The notes under the pieces were generated by a model, which did not search any database, had not been told where the DNA came from, and was given only the letters and a program-made list of their open reading frames with translations. Both the position numbers and the translations under genes were made by a program. This document shows positions 124 through 4,730 of a DNA stretch of 4,730 nucleotides, one piece after another. Source of the stretch: a virus (Duplodnaviria > Heunggongvirae > Uroviricota > Caudoviricetes); IMG/VR virus record IMGVR_UViG_2711768074_000004, one strand, 5' to 3'. Each line of letters begins with the position of its first letter. Position 1 is the first letter of the stretch.

Positions 124-552
124 TTGGATTGTTCTCCAGAGTTTTGTGCCCGCAATTTTGCGGAGACATCAATTTTGGTACGCCAGCCCAACGGCGGTAC
201 TCGCAAACTACCTTGCTATCAAATAACCCGCGATGGCTTTGCGTTTCTTGCTATGGGTTTCACGGGTAAACGTGCTGCCCAGTTCAAAGAGGCATACATC
301 AATGCCTTTAACCAGATGGAGAAACAGCTTTCAAAGCCCTCTGTACCGAGCGACGTTGCACATAACGCCAGCGTTCTCTATTCCTACATTTCATCAATTC
401 ATCAGGTCTGGTTGCAGCAGCTTTATCCCATGCTGGAAAAAGCTGAATCACCGCTGGCTGTAAGTCTGTATGACCGAATTAACGATGCGGCATTTCTTGC
501 CCGTCTTATTCATTCGTCGCTGAACTCTTCAGAGGTAAGGGGGCGCAAATGA
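124..552 (+). CDS. Rha-family phage regulatory protein; only the C-terminal half of the Rha domain is in this frame, 5' end appears degraded or frameshifted
   Basis: Translation contains LDCSPEF...NFAETS...LPCYQITRDGFAFLAMGFTGKRAAQFKEAYINAFNQME, which matches the conserved C-terminal half of the Rha domain as I recall it. An in-frame stop lies at 97-99 immediately upstream, and the ORF-track start at 124 is a TTG with no clear Shine-Dalgarno. N-terminal-like fragments appear in the other two frames upstream (MMDIIFVE..., ...EPVT...). Confidence 0.55.
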   Translation: MDCSPEFCARNFAETSILVRQPNGGTRKLPCYQITRDGFAFLAMGFTGKRAAQFKEAYINAFNQMEKQLSKPSVPSDVAHNASVLYSYISSIHQVWLQQLYPMLEKAESPLAVSLYDRINDAAFLARLIHSSLNSSEVRGRK

Positions 553-773
553 TCCGGAATATTTTCAAACGTTTTACCAATCAGACTTTCCGTTGTCCTC
601 GTCCGGGTCAGTGGTACACCACGCCTGCAGGGCATGTTCTACGTGTTAGCCTGGTTGACCGTGAATGTCAGAAGGTGGTTTGTGAACCGCTGGGCCGTAA
701 TTACCGCGTCAGTATGCCGCTTATAGCCTTTCGCTCCGGAAAAAACATGAAGCATCTCGGAGGTGCTGCATGA
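549..773 (+). CDS. hypothetical small phage protein (74 aa)
   Basis: ATG at 549 overlaps the upstream stop (ATGA). Shine-Dalgarno-like AAGGGGG at 538-543. Its stop in turn overlaps the start of the replication gene. Three Cys residues; no family recognised. Confidence 0.5.
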   Translation: MIRNIFKRFTNQTFRCPRPGQWYTTPAGHVLRVSLVDRECQKVVCEPLGRNYRVSMPLIAFRSGKNMKHLGGAA

Positions 774-1588
774 GTATGGAGCTGATGGTTAAAGCGATGA
801 AAATTCGAGTGGGAAATCCATTGCGAAAACTGGTTCTGATCAAGCTGGCTGATAATGCCAGCGATCAGGGGGAGTGCTGGCCCAGCTACCAGCATATTGC
901 TGACCAGTGCGAGATTAGCAAACGTTCTGTGATGAATCATATTGCGGCCCTTTGTGAGTCCGGGCTGGTAAAAAAAGTCACCCGGAAAGGTGAAAAAGGT
1001 AACTCAAGTAATATCTATCTCCTTCATCTGGATGGTGCAGGAGATTCACTAGGGGGTAGTGCAAATAATTCACTATCTGGTGCAGCAAATTCACCAGGTA
1101 GTGCAGGAGTTGCACCAGGGGGTAGTGCAGGAGATTCACCCAGAACCAGTCACTCTTTTGAACCAGTCAAAGAACCAGTCAATGAACCAATAGCTGTTGG
1201 TGCATCTGCTGATGAGTCTGTGCGAGTTCGTTCAAACCGACCGGAATACTCTCCGGAGTTTGAGCAGGCATGGCTGGTATATCCCAAACGTGCTGGTGGC
1301 AATTCAAAATCTGCAGCCTTCAAAGCCTGGAAAGCCCGTTTGAATGAGGGGGTAAACCCCGAAACCATGCTGGAAGGTGTGAAACGCTACGCGGGCTGGG
1401 TATCTGCGATGGGTAACAGCGGCACACAATTTGTGAAACAGGCTGTCACGTTCTTTGGTCCGGATCGTCATTTCGAAGAATCCTGGGAAGTTCCTGCGGT
1501 ATCTGCAGCCAGACGCGAGGACCCGTACTTCAAAGCCAGTTACGACAATGTGGACTACAGCCAGATCCCGGTAGGATTCAGGGGGTGA
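770..1588 (+). CDS. phage replication initiation protein: N-terminal helix-turn-helix domain, Gly/Ser/Ala-rich linker encoded by iteron-like repeats, C-terminal domain of unrecognised family
   Basis: ATG 770 preceded by GGAGG at 759-763. N-terminus (NPLRKLVLIKLADNASDQGECWPSYQHIADQCEISKRSVMNHIAALCESGLV) resembles the HTH of phage O-like / DnaD-like initiators. The middle of the gene (1031-1193) consists of direct DNA repeats, as lambda ori does inside gene O. Confidence 0.8.
   Translation: MSMELMVKAMKIRVGNPLRKLVLIKLADNASDQGECWPSYQHIADQCEISKRSVMNHIAALCESGLVKKVTRKGEKGNSSNIYLLHLDGAGDSLGGSANNSLSGAANSPGSAGVAPGGSAGDSPRTSHSFEPVKEPVNEPIAVGASADESVRVRSNRPEYSPEFEQAWLVYPKRAGGNSKSAAFKAWKARLNEGVNPETMLEGVKRYAGWVSAMGNSGTQFVKQAVTFFGPDRHFEESWEVPAVSAARREDPYFKASYDNVDYSQIPVGFRG
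1031..1141. repeat. five imperfect ~20-24 bp direct repeats (iteron-like), core GGT(A)GTGCA-N5-T(T/G)CAC with internal dyad symmetry; putative phage ori
   Basis: Units read directly: 1031 GATGGTGCAGGAGATTCACT; 1051 AGGGGGTAGTGCAAATAATTCACT; 1075 ATCTGGTGCAGCAAATTCACC; 1096 AGGTAGTGCAGGAGTTGCACC; 1117 AGGGGGTAGTGCAGGAGATTCACCC. Unit 4 carries a perfect GTGCA/TGCAC inverted pair. Confidence 0.5.
1143..1193. repeat. three copies of GAACCAGTCA plus one degenerate copy (GAACCAATAG), immediately downstream of the iteron block
   Basis: GAACCAGTCA at 1143-1152, 1160-1169 and 1172-1181; GAACCAATAG at 1184-1193. Confidence 0.4.
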
Positions 1589-1590
1589 TC

Positions 1591-2079
1591 ATGAGTCTTT
1601 TGAATGAAGTTCAGAAATTCATTGAAGCCCATCCGGGGTGTACTTCCGGAGACATTGCGGATGCTTTTGCAGGTTACTCACGGCAGCGCGTTCTGCAGTC
1701 TGCAAGCAAGTTACGTCAGAGTGGGCGTGTGGCTCACCGTTGTGAAGGAGATACACGCAGACATTTCCCACGCCTGACTGAGAGAGCGCAGGAGCCGGAA
1801 CCACAACCAGTTCGTGAAACCAGACCTGTGCGCAATTTCTATGTCGGCACTAACGATCCCCGGGTGATTTTGTGCCTGACCCGCCAGGCTGAAGAACTGG
1901 AGTCAAGGGGCTTATACCGTCGTGCTGCAACCGTGTGGATGGCGGCATTCCGTGAAAGCCACTCCCAGCCAGAACGAAACAATTTTCTGGCGCGTCGTGA
2001 GCGGTGCTTACGGAAAAGCAGCAAGCGCGCTGCATCAGGTGAAGAGTGGTATCTATCAGGGAATTACGTGGGGGCTTAA
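1591..2079 (+). CDS. PerC-family transcriptional regulator-like protein with an N-terminal winged-helix-like extension
   Basis: C-terminal segment AEELESRGLYRRAATVWMAAF...ERNNFLARRERCL matches the PerC signature as I recall it (A..LE..GLWRRAA.RW ... RR..C). ATG at 1591 follows GGGGG at 1580-1584; the ORF track's GTG at 1585 is in frame and overlaps the upstream stop. Stop TAA 2077-2079 overlaps the next ATG (TAATG). Confidence 0.6.
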   Translation: MSLLNEVQKFIEAHPGCTSGDIADAFAGYSRQRVLQSASKLRQSGRVAHRCEGDTRRHFPRLTERAQEPEPQPVRETRPVRNFYVGTNDPRVILCLTRQAEELESRGLYRRAATVWMAAFRESHSQPERNNFLARRERCLRKSSKRAASGEEWYLSGNYVGA

Positions 2080-2732
2080 TGAGTAATAAATATTGCCAGG
2101 CGCTGGTGGAACTGCGGAACAAACCAGCCCATGAACTGAAGGAAGTGGGCGATCAGTGGCGCACGCCGGACAACATTTTCTGGGGAATTAACACCCTGTT
2201 TGGCCCGTTTGTTCTGGATCTGTTCACTGATGGTGATAACGCCAAATGTGCCGCTTATTACACTGCGGAAGACAACGCGCTGGCGCATGACTGGTCAGAA
2301 CGTCTTGCGGAGCTTAAAGGTGCTGCCTTTGGTAATCCCCCGTACAGCCGCGCCAGTCAGCATGAGGGGCAATACATCACCGGCATGCGTTACATCATGA
2401 AACATGCCAGTGCTATGCGTGATAAAGGCGGGCGCTATGTTTTCCTGATCAAAGCTGCCACCAGCGAAGTGTGGTGGCCGGAAGATGCAGACCATATTGC
2501 TTTTATTCGCGGGCGTATTGGTTTTGAACTGCCAGCCTGGTTTATCCCGAAGGACGAGAAGCAGGTGCCGACAGGCGCTTTCTTCGCTGGTGCTATTGCT
2601 GTTTTCGACAAGACCTGGAAGGGACCGGCAATCAGCTACATCGGGCGCGATGAACTTGAGGCATGTGGTGAGGCGTTTCTGGCGCAGGTTCGCCAGCAGG
2701 CAGAAAAACTTGTCAGGGAGATGGCGGCATGA
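2079..2732 (+). CDS. DNA N6-adenine methyltransferase, phage Dam family; orphan (no restriction endonuclease partner in the window)
   Basis: Translation MSNKYCQALVELRNKPAHELKEVGDQWRTPDNIFWGINTLFGPFVLDLFTDGDNAKCAAYYT...FGNPPYS carries the NPPY catalytic motif of amino-methyltransferases. ATG 2079 preceded by GGGG at 2071-2074; the ORF-track start at 2046 is an in-frame upstream extension lying inside the previous gene. Confidence 0.85.
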   Translation: MSNKYCQALVELRNKPAHELKEVGDQWRTPDNIFWGINTLFGPFVLDLFTDGDNAKCAAYYTAEDNALAHDWSERLAELKGAAFGNPPYSRASQHEGQYITGMRYIMKHASAMRDKGGRYVFLIKAATSEVWWPEDADHIAFIRGRIGFELPAWFIPKDEKQVPTGAFFAGAIAVFDKTWKGPAISYIGRDELEACGEAFLAQVRQQAEKLVREMAA

Positions 2733-3055
2733 CGACGTTAACTCAATGCCAGCAGCAGGTGCTGGATATGCTGATTTCTTACCAGCAAGAGCGTGGCTTT
2801 CCGCCAACCAATCAGGAGGTGGCAACCATGCTGGGATACCGTTCAGTGAATGCAGCGGTGGAGCATCTTCGCGCACTGGAGAAAAAAGGCGTCATCACGA
2901 TAAAGCGTGGCGTGGCCCGGGGGATCACGCTTCATACCGCAGTGAAGGACGACGACAGCGAAGCGGTCGGTATCATCCGCGCACTGCTTGCCGGTGAGGA
3001 GAGCGCCAGGTTGCGTGCAGCCCACTGGTTACATGAGAGGGGCCTGAAAGTATGA
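2729..3055 (+). CDS. LexA DNA-binding-domain family protein (winged HTH only, no S24 peptidase domain)
   Basis: LTQCQQQVLDMLISYQQERGFPPTNQEVATMLGYRSVNAAVEHLRALEKKGVITIKRGVARGITL aligns along its length with the E. coli LexA N-terminus ([65 protein letters not shown]). At 108 aa it has no room for the cleavage site or Ser/Lys dyad. ATG overlaps the methyltransferase stop (ATGA). Confidence 0.8.
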   Translation: MTTLTQCQQQVLDMLISYQQERGFPPTNQEVATMLGYRSVNAAVEHLRALEKKGVITIKRGVARGITLHTAVKDDDSEAVGIIRALLAGEESARLRAAHWLHERGLKV

Positions 3056-3441
3056 AGTTGATCCTTCCTTTCCCGCCCAGTGTGAACACGTACTGGCGAC
3101 ACCCCAACAAAGGGGCATTTGCTGGTAAGAGCCTGATAAGCGAGGCGGGGCGAAAATTTCAGAGCGCGGCGTGCGCAGCAATAGTTGAGCAGTTACGTCG
3201 TCTGCCGAAACCAACGTCGGCACCTGCTTCAGTGGAGATCGTGTTGTTTCCGCCGGATAACCGGATCCGTGATCTGGACAACTATAACAAGGCGCTGTTT
3301 GACGCCCTGACCCACGCGGGTGTGTGGGAAGACGACAGACAGGTGAAAAGAATGCTGGTGGAGTGGGGACCGGTTATCCCGAAAGGGAAGGTCGAGATCA
3401 CTATCAGTAAGTACGAGAAAACGGCGGGTGCAGCCGCCTGA
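3052..3441 (+). CDS. rusA: RusA-family Holliday junction resolvase (crossover junction endodeoxyribonuclease)
   Basis: PFPPSVNTYWRH...RIRDLDNYNKALFDALTHAGVWEDDRQV...EITISKYE parallels E. coli RusA (LPWPPSNNRYYRH...[28 protein letters not shown]...ELTITE), including the catalytic acidic residues. ATG overlaps the upstream stop. Confidence 0.9.
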   Translation: MKLILPFPPSVNTYWRHPNKGAFAGKSLISEAGRKFQSAACAAIVEQLRRLPKPTSAPASVEIVLFPPDNRIRDLDNYNKALFDALTHAGVWEDDRQVKRMLVEWGPVIPKGKVEITISKYEKTAGAAA

Positions 3442-3460: not shown

Positions 3461-4270
3461 ATGAATAATCTGATGGTCATTGATGGTATTGAAGTTCGTC
3501 GTGATGCTTATGGGCGTTACAGCCTGAACGATCTGCATCGCGCAGCAGTAGCATCTGGTGCAAATGCCAGAACCAAGGAGCCAGGAAAGTTTCTTTCCAG
3601 CCAACAAACTGTTGAGCTTGTTCATGAATTGACCAACACCCAGAATTTGGGTGTTGACCCGGTGAGTGTGATTCATGGGGGAAATGAACGGGGAACGTAT
3701 GTCTGCAAGGAACTGGTGTATGCCTATGCAATGTGGATCAGCCCGTCATTCCATCTGAAGGTGATCCGTACTTTCGACATGGTAACCAGCGCACCGGAAA
3801 AATTATCCGGACAGGCTGCTGACAAGATGCAGGCTGGTGTGATTCTGCTGGACTTTATGCGCCGGGAATTAAACCTGTCTAACTCTTCAGTGCTTGGTGC
3901 CTGTCAGAAACTCCAGGAGGCTGTTGGCTTACCGAATCTGGCACCGCGCTATGCCATTGATGCTCCTGCTGACGCGCCTGATGGCTCAAGCCGCCCCACG
4001 CTGTCACTGAGTGCACTGCTGAAGCAGTATGGTATCCGCCTGACAGCTAATCAGGCATATCACCAGATGGCGAAGCTGGGGATCGTTGAACAACGTGAAC
4101 GATACAGCCGCACTGCGATTAACAACATCAAAAAATTCTGGTCGCTGACAGCGAAAGGCTGCATGTTCGGCAAGAACATCACCAGTCCCGCAAATCCGCG
4201 CGAGACGCAGCCGCATTTCTTCGAATCCCGGTTCCCTGAGCTGTTAAAGCTGCTCGATACCGTTCATTGA
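3461..4270 (+). CDS. KilA-N domain protein with KilAC/Ant-like C-terminal region (antirepressor-like)
   Basis: N-terminus MNNLMVIDGIEVRRDAYGRYSLNDLHRAA...GTYVCKELVYAYAMWISPSFHLKVIRTFD is KilA-N-like; C-terminal part (LSALLKQYGIRLTANQAYHQMAKLGIVEQRE...) resembles the KilAC/Ant C-terminal domain. ATG 3461 preceded by AAGAGGAG at 3445-3452; the ORF-track start at 3428 is an upstream in-frame extension overlapping rusA. Confidence 0.8.
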   Translation: MNNLMVIDGIEVRRDAYGRYSLNDLHRAAVASGANARTKEPGKFLSSQQTVELVHELTNTQNLGVDPVSVIHGGNERGTYVCKELVYAYAMWISPSFHLKVIRTFDMVTSAPEKLSGQAADKMQAGVILLDFMRRELNLSNSSVLGACQKLQEAVGLPNLAPRYAIDAPADAPDGSSRPTLSLSALLKQYGIRLTANQAYHQMAKLGIVEQRERYSRTAINNIKKFWSLTAKGCMFGKNITSPANPRETQPHFFESRFPELLKLLDTVH

Positions 4271-4271
4271 G

Positions 4272-4643
4272 GTGACCGTGAGAGCGCTACTGACCCCTGA
4301 AATTGCCCCGCGTATGGGGATCGTATTGTTCAGGCCAGGTTCAGAGCTGATGCCCCTGTTTATGCAGGGGCGTGTCCTGCTGGAGCCTGAGCCGGAACGT
4401 TATTCATCTTTCGCCAGTGGTGCCGTTCCGGCGGCATCACAACCGCTGGCGGATGATCCTGCCGTTCGGGCCGTGTTCCGCAATGAGGCAGTGATCCGTC
4501 GTGCTGGTGGCGTGGAATGTCTTGAAAGCTGGTTACTTCGTGAAAAAGGCTGCCAGTGGCCTCATTCCGACTGGCACAGCGAGAACATGACAACAATGCG
4601 ACACGCGCCGGGCGCAATCCGTCTGTGCTGGCACTGCGGGTAA
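4272..4643 (+). CDS. hypothetical nin-region protein, 3'-truncated by IS1 insertion; last residue and stop codon are supplied by the IS1 terminus
   Basis: ORF opens directly after the KilA-N gene stop (in-frame GTG 4272/4278 near GAGGTGA, or ATG 4314). It ends ...LCWHCG-TAA, where codon GGG 4638-4640 straddles the IS1 boundary and TAA 4641-4643 lies inside the IS1 inverted repeat. Family not recognised; a DUF968/YdfU-type protein is a possibility from genomic position only. Confidence 0.5.
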   Translation: MTVRALLTPEIAPRMGIVLFRPGSELMPLFMQGRVLLEPEPERYSSFASGAVPAASQPLADDPAVRAVFRNEAVIRRAGGVECLESWLLREKGCQWPHSDWHSENMTTMRHAPGAIRLCWHCG

Positions 4644-4730
4644 TGACTCCAACTTATTGATAGTGTTTTATGTTCAGATAATGCCCGATGACTTTGTCAT
4701 GCAGCTCCACCGATTTTGAGAACGACAGCG
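4639..4730 (-). mobile_element. IS1 insertion sequence, partial (92 bp in window), reverse orientation; the IRR end abuts the phage DNA
   Basis: 4639-4730 GGTAATGACTCCAACTTATTGATAGTGTTTTATGTTCAGATAATGCCCGATGACTTTGTCATGCAGCTCCACCGATTTTGAGAACGACAGCG matches the reverse complement of the right end of IS1 as I recall it, including the ~23-bp terminal inverted repeat at 4639-4661. Confidence 0.9.
4654..4730 (-). CDS. insB: IS1 transposase InsB, C-terminal fragment (partial; continues beyond the window)
   Basis: Minus-strand translation of 4730..4654 gives ...LSFSKSVELHDKVIGHYLNIKHYQ-stop, the InsB C-terminus. Confidence 0.75.
   Translation of the reverse strand, partial: LSFSKSVELHDKVIGHYLNIKHYQ

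Follow-up and report, generated by a model that had tools for sequence, protein, structure and literature searches.

The DNA considered here is a stretch of 4,730 nucleotides (the window, analysed over its whole length) from the tailed-phage record IMGVR_UViG_2711768074_000004, and it corresponds to the early-right operon of a lambdoid prophage of SfV type. Nine proteins, all encoded on the plus strand, were profiled with Pfam and PHROGs, and the features of the window are collected in Table 1. Of central interest is a replication initiator of the same type as orf39 of phage SfV, and the means by which a module built around that one protein might obtain a helicase. The SfV-type module encodes no helicase loader. 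Its initiator has a conserved C-terminal helical domain that, in most relatives, is encoded next to a helicase gene or a confirmed or probable loader gene and that shows some likeness to the C-terminal half of the host primosomal protein DnaT.

Table 1. Features of the 4,730-nucleotide window
Feature	Position	Strand	Evidence and remarks
IS66-family element end	1-108		Matches numerous plasmid sequences annotated IS66 accessory TnpA at 100% identity
rha, truncated	124-552	+
74-aa open reading frame	549-773	+	Function unassigned; phrog_1153; equals SfV orf38
Initiator, 272 aa, SfV orf39 type	770-1588	+	phrog_270 'replication initiation protein', E 4e-88
Winged-helix domain, initiator residues 1-93	770-1048	+	Pfam HTH_36, AlphaFold2, Foldseek
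Putative origin iterons, five copies GGT(AG)TGCA-N5/6-TTCAC	1031-1139		18-24 bp spacing, within initiator gene
AGAACCAGTCA repeats, three copies	1142-1181		Directly right of iterons
C-terminal helical domain, initiator residues ~159-240	1244-1489	+	AlphaFold2, HMMER
Initiator tail IPVGFRG, shortened DnaT-type tail	1565-1585	+
PerC-family gene, YfdN type, SfV orf40	1591-2079	+	Pfam PerC; phrog_1324
Dam methylase	2085-2732	+
LexA DNA-binding-domain-only protein	2729-3055	+
RusA	3052-3441	+
KilA-N protein	3470-4270	+
DUF968/HNH gene, first 123 codons	4272-4643	+
IS1 terminal sequence	4636-4730		Inserted after DUF968/HNH codon 123

Absence of a helicase loader from the window and from complete relatives

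A preliminary description of this DNA, made from its letters alone, had stated that no AAA+ or P-like open reading frame (ORF) was present in the window, and this was borne out by Pfam, which found no AAA+, IstB/DnaC, DnaB or lambda-P family among the nine window proteins. When all six frames of the window were scanned for a Walker A motif, the sole similar string fell inside a 26-codon stop-to-stop stretch that is no real ORF. Searches by tblastn of the window, the complete SfV genome and a 44.5-kb prophage region, with DnaC-like, DnaB-like, P-like, lambda P, DUF6475-type and primase-helicase queries, returned nothing better than E = 0.09. Nor did the gene list of the complete SfV genome (37,074 bp), combined with Pfam profiling of its unassigned early genes, yield a helicase or loader, and none is annotated from the left arm to the baseplate genes of L001, a 44-kb prophage annotated by the Prokaryotic Genome Annotation Pipeline. 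A loader elsewhere in the prophage, which would have overturned the earlier view, was therefore found in neither genome.

The same succession of genes (small ORF, initiator, PerC-like gene, Dam, LexA DNA-binding domain, RusA, KilA-N, DUF968 and Q) occurs in SfV, mEp460 and Stx2a_1447, and the comparison with related prophages that had been suggested thus reveals a conserved, loader-free order. Because whole genomes share this order and have no loader, the absence is a trait of the phage type and not an artefact of a short window. The database entries for SfV and mEp460 are complete phage genomes that contain the same module, which in SfV is ~98% identical to that of the window at the protein level, and we take both to be isolated, plaque-forming phages. 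In terms of known classes, the adjacent P, DnaC-like or DnaB-like gene of a lambda-type O-P module is missing, and what is present is the content of an O-only module, namely one O-like initiator with no loader or helicase in the window, SfV or the L001 prophage.

It could be supposed that a loader has simply been deleted from a decayed, non-replicating prophage, since the window copy sits between two insertion-sequence ends, one of the IS66 family, which cuts rha short, and one of IS1, which does the same to the DUF968 gene. This is very improbable, as the order from the small ORF to DUF968 is equally loader-free in complete SfV, mEp460 and Stx2a_1447, and no loader remnant was detected by tblastn. 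Another conceivable hiding place is among the other unassigned phage genes, such as the 74-aa ORF, Rha/Ash, KilA-N, DUF968 or DUF2303. Several phage genes do have no assigned function, and new loader families are still emerging from phages (PMC11087808). These unassigned proteins match no loader family in Pfam or PHROGs, however, and in phage Stx2_112808 both the 74-aa ORF and Rha/Ash co-occur with DnaC and DnaB. The homologue of the 74-aa ORF that precedes the initiator in that phage (53% identical) sits beside encoded DnaC and DnaB, so the small ORF is no loader substitute, and we consider it improbable that any of these genes supplies the missing function.

Anatomy of the initiator and a putative origin within its gene

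The initiator, for which 5,443 homologues were found, is modelled in three parts by AlphaFold2: a winged helix (residues 1-93), a disordered stretch (95-155) and a compact helical domain (~159-240). The run used 119 diverse homologues, and a separate run on the last domain alone confirmed it. The C-terminal 121 aa are 98% identical to SfV orf39 and to the mEp460 counterpart. In the N-terminal domain, residues 17-67 match HTH_36 with 44.1 bits, well over the cutoff of 25, and the model (predicted local distance difference test, pLDDT, 93-98) has the topology H-H-H-H-E-E. Foldseek matched this domain to winged-helix proteins only, the DnaD N-domain 2v79 among them; membership in DnaD_N is not established, because the score of 24.3 bits lies under the cutoff of 27. 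Neither lambda O domain (Phage_rep_O, Phg_2220_C) was matched in the initiator by Pfam at E <= 0.01, and hhalign against lambda O gave a probability of 0.8%. The winged-helix domain is presumed to bind the origin.

Many database 'proteins' (P0047-P0050, P0026 and P0039) join the N-domain of the initiator to part of RusA, Dam or PerC, and they appear to stem from internal deletions within cryptic prophages rather than to be genuine architectures. The yfdO gene of K-12 is the cryptic remnant of an SfV orf39-type initiator.

Between the two folded domains lies a candidate origin. The disordered, GGSA-rich linker (pLDDT < 50 for residues 95-123) is encoded by an array of five iteron-like repeats, for which a scan gave three matches at up to three mismatches, with none expected. 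Initiator alleles of 250, 272, 294 and 302 aa differ through insertions and deletions in the iteron stretch only, and the array, together with a length polymorphism confined to it, amounts to a lambda-like signature of an origin within the initiator gene. As in lambda, the iterons stand between the parts of the gene that encode the N-terminal DNA-binding domain and the C-terminal domain, and by analogy with lambda ori within O, the array would be the phage origin. The region of the adjoining AGAACCAGTCA repeats is only mildly A+T-rich (GC 0.43) and is possibly an unwinding or loading region. No DnaA box (TTWTNCACA) occurs in the whole window.

A portable C-terminal domain and its neighbours

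The preliminary description had proposed structure prediction for the C-terminal part of the initiator, and the result is a discrete, conserved helical domain (hereafter the C-domain), with helices at residues 162-170, 180-192, 197-214 and 225-228 and pLDDT of 95-98. Its motif runs F-E-x2-W-x2-YP-x-R-x-G-x-N ... G-x2-RY ... TFFG ... W. A full HMMER scan placed the C-domain in 4,504 protein clusters (50% identity level), mostly at the C-terminal end of proteins of 250-350 aa, and no Pfam family or PDB sequence relative was found for it. Searches of PDB sequences with the protein and two profiles returned a keratinase, MukB and a designed repeat protein, all of which were set aside as chance matches.

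Among 119 representatives, the N-terminal partner of the C-domain was HTH_36 in 31, DUF1376 in 12 and lambda-type Phage_rep_O in five, with Lin1244_N, Phage_rep_org_N and others bringing the total to at least five N-domain families. For example, the C-domain of Stx2_112808 is ~85% identical to that of the window and is joined to an unrelated N-domain, with DnaC-like and DnaB-like genes downstream. Judged from its distribution in sequence databases, the C-domain is a widespread, unannotated and portable module.

The company that it keeps was counted as the immediately following gene at 45 loci drawn from a collection with one genome per species. A DnaC-like gene follows in 20 loci, and in 10 of these it is followed in turn by a DnaB-like helicase gene. 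A primase-helicase with Toprim and DnaB_C domains follows in seven (one of them split in two), a lambda-P-like loader in three, and a probable loader of DUF6475 type, with a weak N-terminal match to the PHROG 'helicase loader', in eight. At the remaining seven loci nothing recognisable follows; one of these, in Leclercia, has a YfdN-like gene, and another, in Shigella flexneri, has a DUF977 gene, an arrangement also present in phage Tritos. In 38 of 45 loci (84%), therefore, the C-domain initiator adjoins a gene for a helicase or for a confirmed or probable loader, with four unrelated families represented, and this adjacency suggests a physical partnership. Moreover, phage POCJ13 encodes a DnaC that shares 50% full-length identity with the E. 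coli protein, which makes host DnaC a plausible stand-in where the phage gene is absent.

The DUF6475-type proteins deserve a separate word. They are 216-319 aa long, fall in phrog_6028/10105, and take their name from L119, the sole member with a Pfam match. Genes of this type occupy the loader position at loci L111, L115, L116, L119, L121, L123, L125 and L128, in Burkholderiales and Methylococcales, and their N-termini match the PHROG 'helicase loader' weakly (E 1e-4 to 1e-5). They may represent a new loader family.

The PerC-family gene in the loader position

Directly after the initiator lies the PerC-like gene that had been put at 162-164 aa, a range that reflects two possible starts of the ORF, at 1585 (GTG, 164 aa) and at 1591 (ATG, 162 aa). 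Its residues 100-151 match Pfam PerC with 36.1 bits against a cutoff of 22.6, and its match to phrog_1324 'transcriptional activator' reaches E 8e-79, both of which predict a regulatory role. Matches of its N-terminal region to MarR-like and Ren-like PHROGs are weak and sub-threshold, and the latter (E 0.007) is too weak for use. The gene is best read as encoding a transcription regulator in the ren/nin position, and a loader role appears unlikely.

The contrary possibility, that the PerC-family protein is a non-AAA+ helicase loader or adaptor in the P position, draws on its place in the exact P/DnaC slot, with the initiator stop 3 nt ahead of its ATG, and on its retention in 72 of 80 near-identical viral contigs. 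A YfdN homologue of 25% identity also stands in the same position in Leclercia, and lambda P is likewise a non-ATPase helical protein. The close spacing proves nothing, because every gene of the operon is tightly packed. The family is narrow (201 matches versus 5,443 for the initiator), follows only one of the 45 diverse C-domain initiators, and is missing from two otherwise similar contigs, L012 and L086. The product of 1591-2079 has no Walker A motif and no IstB_IS21, AAA or P-family match in Pfam. As a divergent loader YfdN was rejected, since Pfam, PHROGs and NCBIfam show PerC/ANR-type regulators only, and hhalign comparisons with lambda P (0.3%), lambda Ren and DUF977 all stayed below 1% probability. 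Similarity of this protein to a loader family, which would have undone the earlier reading, was not found in these searches, and with its PerC domain above threshold a loader function is quite unlikely.

Probable likeness of the C-domain to DnaT

Some records name these initiators 'primosomal protein I', which prompted a comparison with DnaT of E. coli. Members of the DnaT family carry the C-terminal motif RD.N..SEPD..IPPGFRG, and in initiators of the Tritos and POCJ13 types the last residues are ISEPDTEIPPGFRG. The full tail motif is present in Tritos, POCJ13 and P0284, the C-domains of which are 46-52% identical to that of the window, and a DnaT-type tail occurs in 116 of 120 DnaT homologues and in 15 of 149 C-domain representatives. 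When the C-domain with its tail was aligned with the DnaT family by hhalign, E was 4e-4 and the probability 35% over 68 columns; with the tail removed, the probability was 5.6%. The alignment pairs the invariant RY of the C-domain and the next aromatic residue with F124 and Y127 of DnaT, which stack on bases of single-stranded DNA (ssDNA).

A hidden Markov model (HMM) of DnaT residues 84-179 was also run against 11,107 sequences, mostly decoy ORFs. Its top 17 matches were all C-domain initiators (E 5e-6 to 8e-3), and window-type proteins scored only E ~2; a control HMM of residues 1-83 found nothing below E = 0.8 in the same set. For the C-domain, neither a three-helix bundle superposable on DnaT (PDB 2RU8, 4OU6) nor the formation of ssDNA filaments was found. 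Taken together, the tail-bearing relatives likely have a DnaT-like C-domain, and that of the window protein is, with less certainty, probably DnaT-like as well.

What such a likeness could mean is suggested by work on DnaT itself. Removal of residues 154-179 weakens its cooperative binding of ssDNA (PMC4132743), and its C-terminal domain forms filaments on lagging-strand ssDNA in the PriA primosome, marking the DnaB-DnaC loading site (PMC13377028). An HTH_36 domain and a DnaT_C motif have also been assigned by HHpred to the O-like protein DopC (PMC5509034).

A further parallel concerns the host gene. The 20-residue C-terminal tail of E. coli DnaT, RDVNTVSEPDSQIPPGFRG (L139 1979-2518), is near-identical to the tails of Tritos- and POCJ13-type initiators (L006, L007), and dnaT immediately precedes dnaC, in the way that those initiators precede phage dnaC. 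This parallel in tail and gene order hints at a phage origin of the dnaT-dnaC operon and at a tail with a function of its own.

A proposed route to the helicase and its alternatives

The reading that we favour, with a probability of roughly 0.55, is that an origin-tethered, DnaT-like module recruits host DnaB-DnaC, and that YfdN is a regulator and not a loader. The winged-helix domain would bind the five iterons in its own gene and open the neighbouring DNA, upon which the C-terminal module, like the C-terminal half of DnaT, would engage the exposed single strand and serve as a landing site for host DnaB6-DnaC6. Host DnaC would then replace the phage P, DnaC or self-loading primase-helicase of relatives, and the SfV lineage would simply be one without the loader gene that C-domain initiators usually have beside them. 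The earlier proposal that the C-terminal domain recruits the helicase gains indirect, comparative support from the neighbouring genes and the DnaT likeness; its two versions, direct binding of DnaB and reliance on host DnaC, are not separated by these data and are not exclusive of each other.

Several observations weigh against this reading. Apart from the tail, the domain resembles DnaT only weakly. The window's own tail retains only IPVGFRG, a tail-less HMM of DnaT residues 84-153 gave sub-threshold matches only, and the Pfam DnaT model PF17948, against which E. coli DnaT scores 3.7e-21, did not match the window fragment, 43 family members or the tail-bearing relatives at E <= 10. The C-domain also pairs with four unrelated helicase-delivery systems, so a generic role in origin melting or ssDNA binding fits as well as helicase docking. 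Moreover, Vibrio phages (D77 and ~100 similar records) have an initiator with a window-like winged helix and C-domain and no annotated loader. Vibrio hosts use DciA in place of DnaC, which means that DnaC cannot serve every C-domain as its partner. Phage D77 was considered as a test of DnaC dependence and dropped, as two proteins encoded nearby (542 and 794 aa), both without a Pfam match, may hide a helicase. Finally, replication has been studied in none of the O-only phages, according to a 2025 survey (PMC12315714).

A rival view follows from the generic role, namely that the C-domain only oligomerises the initiator or melts the origin, and that the helicase arrives through host DnaA or through the PriA-PriB-DnaT restart primosome, acting at the opened origin or at an R-loop. 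We hold this to be unlikely, though of some weight. The lack of a DnaA box in the window counts against the DnaA route and leaves the PriA route untouched, and the tight adjacency of C-domain initiators to loaders and helicases in 84% of relatives tells against both. The same phage type also encodes a homologue of YfdR (SfV orf30; minus strand of L001, 16425-16961). YfdR is an HD-domain protein that binds DnaA, blocks DnaA-DnaB contact and lowers the binding of DnaB-DnaC to DnaA-oriC (PMC4776307), and this, too, counts against the DnaA route. Conceivably, the YfdR homologue might steer host DnaB-DnaC towards the origin of the phage.

A bolder form of the favoured recruitment model, which we advance only tentatively, is that the initiator is a sequence-targeted DnaT, the C-terminal module of which, anchored at the iterons through the winged helix, by itself captures host DnaB-DnaC and loads it at the phage origin, with no need of DnaA, PriA or PriB. 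If true, this would constitute a third, minimal route of helicase loading in E. coli, and as a corollary, the enterobacterial dnaT-dnaC operon would descend from a phage pair of initiator C-module and dnaC.

Condition of the window copy and remaining genes

The 74-aa ORF is tightly nested in the operon, its start overlapping the stop of truncated rha and its stop overlapping the start of the initiator. On the left, the IS66-family end joins rha at codon ~180 and truncates it, and on the right, IS1 cuts the DUF968/HNH gene, the product of which is 331 aa long in relatives. With an insertion-sequence (IS) end on either side, the window copy is disrupted at both flanks, which suggests a defective prophage in a host rich in IS elements, for instance Shigella. 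Of 5,426 complete E. coli genomes, 691 carry at least 80% of the window, and the left IS66-rha junction was found in none of the complete E. coli genomes of the collection.

The product of 2729-3055 is a protein of 108 aa that consists of a LexA DNA-binding domain alone (Pfam E 2.6e-19), without the S24 peptidase domain, and it is kept in SfV and mEp460. Such a protein could occupy SOS boxes without being cleavable.

Comparison with known systems

The novelty implied by the preliminary description did not survive. An O-like initiator stands alone in 34 of 314 enterobacterial lambdoid phages, whose replication is "not yet understood" in the words of Zheng, Casjens et al. (Genome Res 2025, PMC12315714), and the window, with its single O-like initiator and no helicase or loader, fits the description of that class. 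The SfV-type initiator-only module is thus already catalogued and entered GenBank with the SfV sequence. The layout is that of about one in nine enterobacterial lambdoid phages, including the serotype-converting SfV and some Stx2 phages, and in Stx phages the type of replication has been linked to lysogen stability and toxin output. The helicase-delivery genes that accompany the C-domain, along with its DnaT likeness, offer a handle of ~120 residues on O-only replication, and they bear on the recruitment of DnaB-DnaC by DnaT and on a possible phage ancestry of the dnaT and dnaC genes.

The closest kin are SfV orf38-orf39-orf40 and mEp460 gp42-44, which are the same genes in the same order as in the window. 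The yfdO/yfdN remnant of CPS-53 in K-12 is also kin, and yfdN names appear in E. coli genome annotations. In the Eru6 region, with Stx2a_WGPS2 as its representative, Rha and HTH_36 proteins hold the first two positions beside cI (PMC8951638). The gene order of Stx2a_1447 fits that description, and its record belongs to a species named after WGPS2; the full arrangement is present in Stx2a_1447 and L001, and the window has the truncated Rha and the HTH_36 protein, with cI lying beyond it. The window copy differs from these kin in being interrupted by an IS element at either end, and iteron number varies among alleles.

The lambda O-P module shares with the window an N-terminal origin-binding domain, iterons within the gene, a flexible linker and a C-terminal part that in the window, too, would recruit a partner, as well as the operon position right of cro and cII; it differs in its P gene and in its Phage_rep_O and Phg_2220_C domains, none of which the window has. 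With E. coli DnaT, the window has a shortened form of the tail motif in common and a weakly similar helical domain, and the dnaT-dnaC operon, a DnaT-like module followed by DnaC, mirrors the succession of initiator and DnaC in POCJ13 and DC1. Another relative in design is the domesticated O-like/P-like pair DopC-DopE (Brezellec et al. 2017, PMC5509034), in which DopC, assigned HTH_36 and the DnaT_C motif, matches the two-part architecture proposed for the window initiator. DopC is a chromosomal protein without iterons and has a P-like loader as its partner, whereas the window has iterons and no loader.

Finally, solo iteron-binding initiators are familiar from plasmids, where pSC101 RepA, R6K pi and RK2 TrfA make use of host DnaB with or without DnaC, some of them touching DnaB directly. 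These Rep proteins belong to an unrelated family (Rep_3), and most of them also need DnaA boxes, of which the window has none.

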